From an uncultured Mycoplasmatota bacterium (GTDB lineage: Bacteria; Bacillota_I; Bacilli_A; RF39; UBA660), in contig CALEBF010000012.1 of assembly GCA_937944975.1 (NCBI GenBank), forward strand, positions 103,418 through 167,417: a stretch of DNA of 64,000 nt, in the 5' to 3' direction. This document shows positions 9,696 to 11,651 of the stretch, piece by piece. The notes beneath the pieces were generated by a model, which did no database searches, was not told where the DNA came from, and worked only from the letters and a program-made list of their open reading frames with translations. Every line of letters begins with the position of its first letter. The first letter of the stretch is position 1. The translations under genes were made by a program, and so were the position numbers.

Positions 9696-11651
9696 CTACT
9701 CTTGAATTGTGTTGTACATGTTGAACATTGGAATAACGATTGCTAAAACGATAACACCAACAACTCCGGTTAACAAGACGATTAAAATCGGTTCGACGAA
9801 TGTCTTGATACGAGCTACTGCAGTCTCGTGCAATTCTTGATAATAAGATGATACTTTTTGCATCATTTCTGGAAGTTCTCCAGTTTTTTCTCCGGTTACA
9901 AGCATTTCATATGCTGGCACTGGAAAGGCCCAATGCCCTTTAAACGAAGCCGAGATACTTTCTCCGGTCGATAGATTTTGCAATGTTTTATTGATCATCT
10001 CTTTATAGATTTCGTTCGATGTGATTCGGTTCAAAATTTCCATACTATCTGTAATAAATACATTGTGAGCCATCAAAGAACCGAGTGTCTTTGTGAACAA
10101 TGTAACTTCGTTATAAATTACGACATCTCCTAACACAGGAATTTTCATAAGTACAGTTTGCATTGCTTTTCTAAATGGTTGTACTTTCTTAAATATATAT
10201 ATATATATGATAAAGAAAACAACAACACCAAGCAATATAAAAACACCATAGTCACGTAAGAAATGGCTACAATCCAAAATCCATAAAGTGAATGCTGGAA
10301 TTGCAGAAGCGTCCATGCTTGAATAGATTTCGACGAATTGTGGGATAACATACACCATGATAAAGATGATAACGACAATGGCAACAAATAACACCATACA
10401 TGGATATAATAGTGCATTTACCATCTGTTTTTTTGTCTTTTCTGTCTGCGTATAATACTCTTCCATATCATCTAGCACTTCTGGAAGTTCCCCTGTTAGC
10501 TCACTCGATTTAACCATGTTGACAAAAAGACCAGGAAATGCTTTCCCTTGTTTTTCTAACGCTGTACTAAAACTATCCCCCATCGTTAAATCGTACATCA
10601 TCGTCCGGAAAACCTTTTGATATCCTGGATTCTTATACTGTCTCGTTAATATTTTTAAACTATCGACAAGTGGAATTCCGGCTTTGATATAAGTAGATAA
10701 CTGGGTGATGAAGAAGATAAGATCTTTCGTTTTGATTTTGACAGATCCAAATCCTGTATCACCATGTAAAAATGTAATCCATTTGCTACTACGAATGCTG
10801 TAAACTTCGAAGCCTTGACTAATCAAAAACGAATGCACTTCCAACTTAGAAAAAGCTTCGAAATATCCTTTGACTATCTTTCCGTCTTCATTTTTAGCGA
10901 CATACTCGAAAAGTATTTTTTTATCGCTCTTTTCCGCAGATTCCTTCGATAGATCAATCAGTAATGCCTCGTGTTTTTCCGCTTCTCGTAAAGCTTTTTT
11001 CTCTGCACCAATCGGGCTGTTTAATACTTTTTTGATCTTAGAAGGTAGCGCTCCAATCGCTGCAAAAAAAGCCTCCAATCGTTGCGCGAAAGTCTTCTTT
11101 GGTTTTTCCTCCAACATTGCCTCAACGGCAGCTTCGTCTTCTAATCCTTCGATAAATTGTTTCTTTCTTAATTCTGATTCTTCCGCTTCTTTACGTTGTT
11201 CTTCAGCGATCCGTTGTGCTTCTTCTACAACGGATAAATTGTGTAATCTCGTCTGTTCTTTTAAAGCTTCTTTTTCGCGACGGCGAGCCTCTAACTCACG
11301 TAACCTACGATCTTTTCTTGCAAGCCTCTCCTGATGATTTGCAATCATGATCATAACGAATTTACGTAGCGTATGATCGTATAAGAATAAATACCCGATC
11401 TGTACTGCTAATCCGATCGCTAATATTCCAAAATATACATACTTCCAGAAACGAAATAATATCATTCCAATCATATGTACAATTTGATATACTCCTTCAC
11501 AACAAACAATAAATCCAATCAATAGGTATCTTAAAAAATTACGTATCAATTGTAAGACACAGTGTATTGTTACTTGTGTTCCAACATAAGCGTAATAAAC
11601 CACTCTATATACAAGAATGCAAGGCCAAAATATGATTGGTTTATTTGCCAT
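9696..11651 (-). CDS. type II secretion system F-family platform protein (GspF/PilC/ComGB-like) with ~240-aa N-terminal TM plus coiled-coil extension
   Basis: C-terminal ~410 aa carry two GspF repeats (KILFEYVAKNEDGKIVKG..., LTGELPEVLDDMEEYY, GEKTGELPEMMQKVSSYY); N-terminal extension in same frame without stops: hydrophobic segments then highly charged Arg/Glu/Lys coiled-coil region. Confidence 0.75.
   Translation of the reverse strand: MANKPIIFWPCILVYRVVYYAYVGTQVTIHCVLQLIRNFLRYLLIGFIVCCEGVYQIVHMIGMILFRFWKYVYFGILAIGLAVQIGYLFLYDHTLRKFVMIMIANHQERLARKDRRLRELEARRREKEALKEQTRLHNLSVVEEAQRIAEEQRKEAEESELRKKQFIEGLEDEAAVEAMLEEKPKKTFAQRLEAFFAAIGALPSKIKKVLNSPIGAEKKALREAEKHEALLIDLSKESAEKSDKKILFEYVAKNEDGKIVKGYFEAFSKLEVHSFLISQGFEVYSIRSSKWITFLHGDTGFGSVKIKTKDLIFFITQLSTYIKAGIPLVDSLKILTRQYKNPGYQKVFRTMMYDLTMGDSFSTALEKQGKAFPGLFVNMVKSSELTGELPEVLDDMEEYYTQTEKTKKQMVNALLYPCMVLFVAIVVIIFIMVYVIPQFVEIYSSMDASAIPAFTLWILDCSHFLRDYGVFILLGVVVFFIIYIYIFKKVQPFRKAMQTVLMKIPVLGDVVIYNEVTLFTKTLGSLMAHNVFITDSMEILNRITSNEIYKEMINKTLQNLSTGESISASFKGHWAFPVPAYEMLVTGEKTGELPEMMQKVSSYYQELHETAVARIKTFVEPILIVLLTGVVGVIVLAIVIPMFNMYNTIQE

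Follow-up and report, generated by a model that had tools for sequence, protein, structure and literature searches.

The stretch of DNA analysed here, a window of 64 kb from contig CALEBF010000012.1 of an uncultured RF39-type bacterium, encodes a PilC/GspF-type platform protein in which a complete canonical platform is preceded by a long N-terminal arm. The arm comprises three modules: a hydrophobic repeat region with a basic stripe (M1), a charged spacer (M2) and a conserved segment next to the core (M3). With moderate confidence, we propose that the protein is the PilC platform of a monoderm type IV filament machine with a minimal set of parts, and that its arm likely serves as a tether, or outrigger, on the membrane surface. 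The gene and its parts are listed below, with Hessa insertion energies (dG) computed in 19-residue windows.

9696..11651, minus strand: pilC/GspF-type open reading frame (ORF) of 651 amino acids, with the stop codon at 9696-9698.
11352..11651, minus strand: M1, residues 1-100, a conserved N-terminus followed by degenerate hydrophobic repeats.
11139..11351, minus strand: M2, residues 101-171, an Arg/Glu/Lys-rich helix of variable length.
10911..11138, minus strand: M3, residues 172-247, three short helices and then an acidic motif.
10782..10910, minus strand: canonical N-domain, residues 248-290, beta-beta-alpha-beta, delimited by the start of the GspF profile and by the AlphaFold2 (AF2) model.
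9696..10781, minus strand: platform body with two PF00482 domains, consisting of Cyto1, transmembrane helices 1 and 2 (TM1, TM2), Cyto2, TM3 and the stop codon.
10344-10400, minus strand: TM1, residues 418-436, dG -5.6 kcal/mol.
10191-10247, minus strand: TM2, residues 469-487, dG -3.8 kcal/mol.
9732-9788, minus strand: TM3, residues 622-640, dG -4.95 kcal/mol.

The protein is a member of the T2SSF superfamily and belongs to the N-domain-bearing GspF/PilC type, in agreement with the initial annotation, which had described a GspF-like platform protein. Two tandem T2SSF domains (PF00482) are detected with an E-value of 1e-49, and the best match, at residues 314-437, spans the full 125-position Pfam profile. 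All 401 positions of the GspF profile TIGR02120 align with residues 248-649, a complete body of ~400 residues. The profiles of HofC, PilC and XpsF align end to end from residues ~237-248 onwards, and the full-length PilC of M. xanthus (3JC8, 417 residues) aligns with residues 243-650. Because the whole canonical platform is aligned from about residue 248, the N-terminal extension measures ~245-247 residues; the earlier estimate of ~240 was thus close, and all the peptides quoted in its support are present in the translation. The cytoplasmic-domain structures of EpsF, PilC and OutF match the core with TM-scores of 0.8-0.9 in a Foldseek search of the PDB. In the AF2 model, the N-domain has strands at residues 246-253, 259-266 and 282-288 and a helix at residues 269-278, with a predicted local distance difference test score (pLDDT) above 80, and the core TM helices are long helices with pLDDT above 85. 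The score lies below every equivalog cut-off: 298.8 bits against 424 for GspF (TIGR02120), 247.4 and 243.2 bits against 700 for PilC (NF052607 and NF052606), and 151.8 bits against 240 for ComGB (NF041012), which aligns with residues 312-646 only.

On the evidence of the sequence, the extension is translated and the upstream ATG is its true start. Three features of the DNA around the 5' part of the gene bear on this point.

11692..11700, minus strand: putative extended -10 element TGtTATAAT, read from the sequence, in the 109-nt divergent yqfQ-pilC intergenic region.
11657..11661, minus strand: Shine-Dalgarno core AGGTG, read from the sequence, 5 nt before the ATG.
10870..11334, plus strand: Ser-rich antisense ORF, not a gene, a by-product of GAA/AAG-rich sense codons.

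Promoter-like sites in the yqfQ-pilC intergenic region were also flagged by a consensus scan and are predicted. Within residues 1-345, the ATG at 11651 is the sole in-frame start with a well-spaced Shine-Dalgarno-like core, bar TTG180, which is preceded by a weak GAGG, and in the family alignment the conserved N-terminal motif starts right at this ATG. The stop-free frame upstream of the canonical domain, to which the initial annotation had drawn attention, comprises 247 codons and would arise by chance with a probability of ~1e-7 at the local base composition. The ratio of non-synonymous to synonymous substitution rates (dN/dS), calculated against strains L001 (95% protein identity) and L002 (98%), is 0.046 and 0.033, respectively, for the extension, with all three sub-regions constrained individually, and 0.017 and 0.012 for the core.

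These data also decide whether a wrong start, a frameshift or an assembly error could have joined a separate upstream gene to a normal 400-residue pilC. The unusual length would fit such an artefact, and TTG180 with its weak GAGG makes a minor shorter isoform conceivable. However, of the 79 members of the 90%-identity cluster 15 are listed, and 14 of these, from many different assemblies, are 651 residues long (the other is a 53-residue fragment), which excludes both a mis-called start and the sequencing-error fusion that the initial annotation had envisaged. The ~240 orthologues each have a single uninterrupted ORF, the dN/dS of the extension is low in this frame, and the N-terminal motif is conserved from the ATG onward. 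An internal start near residue 240 (the initial annotation had considered a Met near residues 230-240 as a possible refutation) is ruled out: there is no in-frame ATG, GTG or TTG from residue 193 to 269, and the next candidates, at 270-276, lie inside the N-domain. The artefact is thus effectively refuted. The antisense ORF at 10870..11334 was likewise rejected as a gene, as the initial annotation had done, because a stop codon interrupts it in L002 and L027, two strains of 98% identity, and purifying selection on the sense frame is strong. Inspection also ruled out a lipoprotein or signal-peptide N-terminus: FWPC/LLPC does not make a lipobox, and the family has PFI as its consensus at that place.

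Judged by the homologues retrieved, the extension is kept lineage-wide in uncultured RF39-type Bacilli, in essentially all of the ~240 listed orthologues. It is present in all of the best 120 homologues, with a length of 186-420 residues (median 238); their cores are ~65% identical, the extensions only ~25%. A further search that started from a more distant orthologue returned 118 proteins, nearly all with an extension, mostly of 85-215 and up to 330 residues, and the few shorter ones are probably truncated calls. All homologues come from metagenome-assembled genomes of uncultured Bacilli, Firmicutes or Tenericutes. The anatomy given in the initial annotation holds in part: hydrophobic and then charged parts do follow each other, but the best-conserved part, M3, had been overlooked.

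M1 opens with the family consensus xNKPxxLxPFIxVY and continues with repeats of the signature [KR]-[YF]-x-x-x-G-phi, of which the protein in the window (the query) has copies at residues 41 (RYLLIGF) and 70 (KYVYFGI). In the homologue set, the [KR]YxxxG motif occurs 0-8 times per extension and almost never in the cores, and the number of units ranges from 1 to more than 10, odd as well as even. The motif-to-motif spacings are 11, 18, 22, 25/26, 29, 33, 36, 40 and 44 residues, with 18 and 26 dominating, and fit whole helical turns of ~3.65 residues each. Of 100 unique sequences, 68 show their strongest Lys/Arg power over the hydrophobic region at 98-99 degrees; relative to residue shuffles the median z is 3.7, and the highest, 8.7, comes from a region of 222 residues. 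For the query, the peak lies at 98 degrees and z is 1.97, from eight Lys/Arg. By arithmetic, tandem copies of an 18-residue unit alone would give a peak at 120 degrees, so that the signal reflects helical phase and not mere repeat length. On a phased helical wheel, Lys and Arg make up 24-30% within ±40 degrees of the stripe and Tyr 14-22% at ±80 degrees, Ile, Leu, Val, Met and Phe account for 70-77% of the opposite face, and Asp plus Glu amount to 1.5% overall. Uncharged runs are mostly 10-15 residues long, Lys or Arg recurring every 10-15 residues, and in one homologue (L015, 7680-9932) the hydrophobic module has tandem 11-residue units, KYVIKGIYTTL.

The initial annotation had interpreted M1 as two or three TM helices, a reading that the insertion energies do not bear out. 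The best window, at residues 72-90, has a Hessa energy of +0.9 kcal/mol, compared with -3.8 to -5.6 kcal/mol for the TM helices of the core. Among the homologues, 69% have no window at or below 0 in the extension and 31% have one. On the Eisenberg scales, M1 has a mean hydrophobicity of 0.46 and a mean hydrophobic moment of 0.30-0.33, whereas the core TM helices have values of ~0.9 and 0.07-0.1; in every homologue, the moment of M1 is 3-4 times that of the core TM helices. AF2 predicts a single helix for residues 6-126, with pLDDT 68-88 over residues 1-90, and for a repeat-rich homologue (P0040) helices of 49, 70, 51 and 69 residues, separated by breaks of 3-4 residues. The dN/dS of M1 is 0.09. 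From these properties we infer that M1 would form a single amphipathic helix of great length, or a few of them, lying in the plane of the cytoplasmic leaflet, a reading with reasonable support in the family and less in the query. M1 carries an amphipathic repeat of variable copy number that, in the family, has the properties expected of an in-plane amphipathic membrane helix, and binding to the membrane is predicted. Such an in-plane arrangement would leave the copy number free to vary without a change of topology. A profile of 72 M1 units, searched against 1.84 billion representative proteins, found 11 matches, all N-terminal fragments of the same family, at a sensitivity so low that full-length members were missed.

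M2 differs from M1 in composition and has a median length of 63 residues in the family (5-95% range 49-162). Lys, Arg, Glu and Asp make up 56% of it, Pro plus Gly ~0% and hydrophobic residues ~20%; the median net charge is +10, and oppositely charged i/i+4 pairs occur at 0.18 per residue. Its alignment columns are rich in gaps, AF2 renders it as a helix with low pLDDT, and its dN/dS is 0.014-0.016. A charged coiled coil had been predicted here, but heptad periodicity is absent (median z -0.45 over 100 unique linkers; 1.3 in the query), and M2 is therefore not coiled-coil-like. It resembles an ER/K-type single helix, or an unspecific charged spacer, of predicted stiffness, and not a canonical coiled coil. 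In the query the spacer would measure ~10 nm, and by arithmetic on the residue counts the span would be roughly 7-24 nm across the family, assuming a straight helix. The charged linker of one homologue (L016, 3998-6235) consists of near-perfect tandem repeats (…KQKVLEAKQLKLEKKQEQQRLKKEK…). Tandem duplication is thus a route by which both variable modules, M1 and M2, expand, as seen in L015 and L016.

M3 is the best-conserved part of the extension, with the family consensus DxYINENVxxEKK...IN.FF..I...P.KIK...FVKN.RNKK...REALLI(N/D)F(E/D)GEDAEKSDxK, and leads directly into strand 1 of the N-domain. In the query the terminal motif is degenerate (...HEALLIDLSKESAEKSDKK; the degenerate version is also given as LIDLSKESAEKS), and a relaxed form of it is present in 94 of the 118 distant orthologues. 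Among these distant orthologues, the minimal arms have a single M1 unit, joined by a short Lys-rich linker to the M3 motif. AF2 places helices at residues 188-233 with pLDDT 51-72, a low confidence that is as expected for a segment that may bind a partner, and dN/dS is 0.022 against L002. No TM helix separates M2 and M3 from the cytoplasmic N-domain, and both must therefore be cytoplasmic. In residues 1-247 and in four homologues, a Pfam scan at E<=1 brought up chance-level matches only (Spem1, FUT8_N_cat, Piezo_TM25-28 and others), and the Foldseek search of PDB structures matched the canonical core and N-domain look-alikes and nothing in the arm. Literature searches on RF39 pili and competence and on N-terminal extensions of PilC turned up no description of the arm. 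We see in it a variation on a familiar protein: an accessory module carried throughout the lineage, whose sequence signature is unusual and can be quantified cleanly and whose function is predicted.

The neighbouring genes fit a filament machine with few components.

8921..9685, minus strand: prepilin peptidase (pilD; PilD/ComC type), PF06750 and PF01478, 11 nt downstream of pilC.
7467..8858, plus strand: PilB/GspE-type assembly ATPase, PF00437, which the GspE profile matches from position 106.
4256-5926, minus strand: pilin-like gene, 556 amino acids, class III signal RG/FTVVE, PF12810 with E 2e-43.
5942-7372, minus strand: pilin-like gene, 476 amino acids, class III signal LG/FSLME, PF12810 with E 3e-36.
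21412-22200, minus strand: comEA, 262 amino acids, overlapping comEC, assigned from sequence features and Pfam labels on orthologous loci.
19380-21452, minus strand: comEC, 690 amino acids, assigned on the same grounds.

The peptidase gene is probably co-transcribed with pilC. The ATPase has no N1 domain and begins directly at N2; at its C-terminus, a conserved acidic LIELDDDxS motif is followed by a disordered tail of 50-120 residues rich in Thr, Pro, Gln and Asn, which is present in all ten lineage members among the loci compared. Both pilin-like proteins have a C-terminal ALK/LTK-type glycine-rich domain; no other prepilin-type ORF was found in the 64 kb, and no small ComGC-like major pilin was seen there. 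Together with an FtsW/RodA-family gene assigned on the same grounds, comEA and comEC occupy 19380-23320 on the minus strand, 8-11 kb from pilC, which places DNA-uptake genes near the filament genes. The organism appears, from its gene content, to make peptidoglycan.

How could the arm act on the platform? In PulF, the N-domain has the beta-beta-alpha-beta fold, sits at the periphery of every oligomer model and moves more than any other part of the protein; it is dispensable, yet full efficiency needs it, and in simulations it stays membrane-bound only if the bilayer contains anionic lipids (PMC10790770). Its partners and its role in the platform are an open question (PMC10790770). Given a canonical N-domain that is peripheral, mobile, non-essential yet efficiency-boosting and capable of binding anionic lipids in simulation, the arm is most likely a tether. 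We hypothesize that M1 would grip the anionic cytoplasmic leaflet, that M2 would set the distance, and that M3 would present a conserved surface beside the N-domain. The arm would then keep the N-domain, and any partner of M3, on the membrane at the edge of the platform, and might provide a lateral anchor for a machine without an alignment subcomplex.

Several points weigh against the tether. The periodicity of the query is weak, with a z of ~2 from only 8 Lys/Arg, and its residues 72-90 form an uncharged stretch of 19-21 residues with a marginal insertion energy (+0.9), at which one TM helix or a re-entrant hairpin is possible. The Eisenberg plot places M1 between 'surface' and 'multimeric TM', and the phase coherence of the stripe could be partly inherited from tandem duplication of fixed-length units and not selected. 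AF2 often renders unpacked hydrophobic repeats as long helices. M2 is ~20% hydrophobic, and textbook ER/K single helices have fewer hydrophobic residues. In M3, pLDDT is low and the motif of the query is degenerate. Both the topology and the function are predictions.

With regard to topology, M1 might instead consist of two to four true TM helices that add an anchor, with M2 as a dimeric or trimeric coiled coil aiding oligomerization of the platform, an arrangement that we consider unlikely while taking it seriously. Kyte-Doolittle windows do show 2-4 hydrophobic segments in the query, the stretch at residues 72-90 is marginal and could be inserted with help, and about a third of homologues (the 31% above) have one window at or below 0; since platform proteins are oligomeric (PMC10790770), a coiled coil is plausible. 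However, Lys or Arg in each inter-segment loop would put basic clusters on both sides of the membrane, which breaks the positive-inside rule, and odd and even unit numbers occur although the C-terminal end must remain cytoplasmic. The uncharged runs of mostly 10-15 residues and the 11-residue units are too short for the bilayer, the basic stripe keeps its helical phase across unit boundaries, AF2 gives helices of 49-120 residues, and M2 is without heptads. We consider it very improbable that M1 is mainly a device for targeting or localization, either an early signal for the signal recognition particle or the membrane, or a sensor of curvature or anionic lipids that places or clusters the machine, for example at poles or septa. 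M1 is indeed an N-terminal hydrophobic, basic and acid-free helix with a conserved motif at its start, the first real TM helix of the protein emerges only after ~420 residues, and minimal orthologues retain one M1 unit; but targeting fails to explain an expansion beyond 200 residues, the conserved M3 and the long spacer.

With regard to function, the initial annotation had suggested that the extension could substitute for PilM/N/O-like alignment components or tether the ATPase. In this form the extension would be a fused replacement of PilM/PilN/PilO or GspL/GspM that holds the N1-less ATPase, for example through binding of M3 or the basic M2 to the acidic ATPase tail. The N1 domain of the ATPase binds GspL in type II secretion, and here N1 is lacking, the cluster has only pilB, pilC, pilD and pilins, the ATPase of the lineage always carries the acidic LIELDDD motif and its tail, and M2 is basic and M3 conserved, so that pairing of the tail with either is conceivable. 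The coiled coils of PilN and PilO are periplasmic, whereas M2 must be cytoplasmic, and the scan at E<=1 gave no Pfam similarity to PilM/N/O or GspL/M. Moreover, monoderm Com pili assemble with core proteins only, so nothing is 'missing' (PMC10790768), and in the PulE:PulF model the N2 domain of the ATPase docks on the Cyto domains and not on the N-terminus (PMC10790770). Such a replacement is improbable, and the earlier suggestion of a PilM/N/O substitute has no positive support; a role as ATPase tether is conceivable. We also speculate, at distinctly low probability, that the arm is a novel mechanical module: an array of monotopic, in-plane helices built from [KR]YxxxG units of 11 or 18 residues, which would lengthen and shorten by tandem duplication and be linked through a stiff single helix to the mobile N-domain. 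Such a module could take up reaction torque or anchor the machine laterally, as a stator built into the platform, or it could remodel the membrane locally; a monoderm machine of five genes could then work without an alignment subcomplex.

Compared with canonical PilC/GspF proteins (PulF, EpsF), the RF39 protein shares the N-domain, two T2SSF domains and three TM helices in residues 248-651, and is likewise encoded beside a prepilin peptidase and near a PilB-type ATPase. The canonical proteins have ~400 residues and start at the N-domain, whereas here 247 residues in three modules are added at the N-terminus, in a monoderm host and a five-gene cluster. With ComGB it has in common a monoderm host of the class Bacilli, a set of core parts only and comEA/comEC nearby, and both ComGA and the ATPase in the window are without an N1 domain. 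In contrast to ComGB, which is without the N-domain (PMC10790770), the RF39 protein keeps this domain and adds the arm. The RF39 pilins also differ from those of the Com pilus in being very large, with glycine-rich domains, and not ComGC-like. In monoderm Com pili, core components suffice and there is no alignment complex (PMC10790768).

The arm resembles PilM/N/O and GspL/M superficially, in that a hydrophobic segment is followed by a long charged helix, and such separate proteins are absent from the machine. In PilN/O and GspL/M, the helices past the TM segment lie in the periplasm and lead to terminal ferredoxin-like domains, and an actin-like fold is found in PilM and the cytoplasmic part of GspL; in contrast, the arm is all-helical in the AF2 model, its charged part is cytoplasmic and sequence similarity is absent (E<=1). 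Apolipoproteins, alpha-synuclein and perilipins have long amphipathic helices of 11-residue repeats that lie on membrane surfaces. M1 is like them in its degenerate whole-turn repeats, which keep a basic stripe over 100-200 residues, but is far more hydrophobic (~50% Ile, Leu, Val, Met and Phe), has a polar stripe of only ~120 degrees and is covalently joined to a polytopic membrane protein; the low-sensitivity search with the M1 profile revealed no homology to them. ER/K single alpha-helices occur as spacers in, for example, myosins. With these, M2 shares the high content of Lys, Arg, Glu and Asp, the i/i+4 pairs, the lack of Pro, Gly and heptads and the free length; it differs in its ~20% of hydrophobic residues and its net charge of about +10.

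How the platform converts motion of the ATPase into insertion of pilins is among the least understood steps of type IV filament assembly. RF39, an order of genome-reduced gut bacteria, keeps the N-domain wired by a long spacer to an apparent membrane-surface helix, under purifying selection, and the arm is thus a natural experiment on whether anchoring of the N-domain matters. A repeat type that holds helical phase over more than 200 hydrophobic residues may also interest the field of monotopic anchors. RF39 bacteria are abundant, auxotrophic and uncultured, and their uptake and adhesion machinery bears on the acquisition of nucleotides and genes. The finding is descriptive and restricted to this lineage.

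The gene order dnaG-rpoD-trmK-yqfQ(divergent)-pilC-pilD is kept in orthologues of ~50% identity; in their genomes the ATPase and pilin genes are located elsewhere, and comEA/comEC are close by. Over the PilC protein, Candidatus Fimihabitans intestinipullorum is ~98% identical, and its genus is placed by GTDB in the order RF39, family CAG-822 (PMC8035907). A minority of the homologues (P0009, P0018, P0103, P0127, P0147 and others) have the precomputed label PF28597.1, which probably covers the N-domain or the core and not the arm, since it is also present on P0147, the extension of which has only 38 residues.

A 325-residue ORF without a Pfam match, at 13404-14381 on the minus strand, has an N-terminus rich in Arg and a hydrophobic anchor; its counterpart in L027 is called with 248 residues and likewise has no Pfam match. 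Between dnaG and a UvdE-like gene, L027 has a GntR regulator, an ABC ATPase and a 260-residue ORF (L027:2347-4185) that are absent from the window at ~17330-17600, which points to a strain-level indel.

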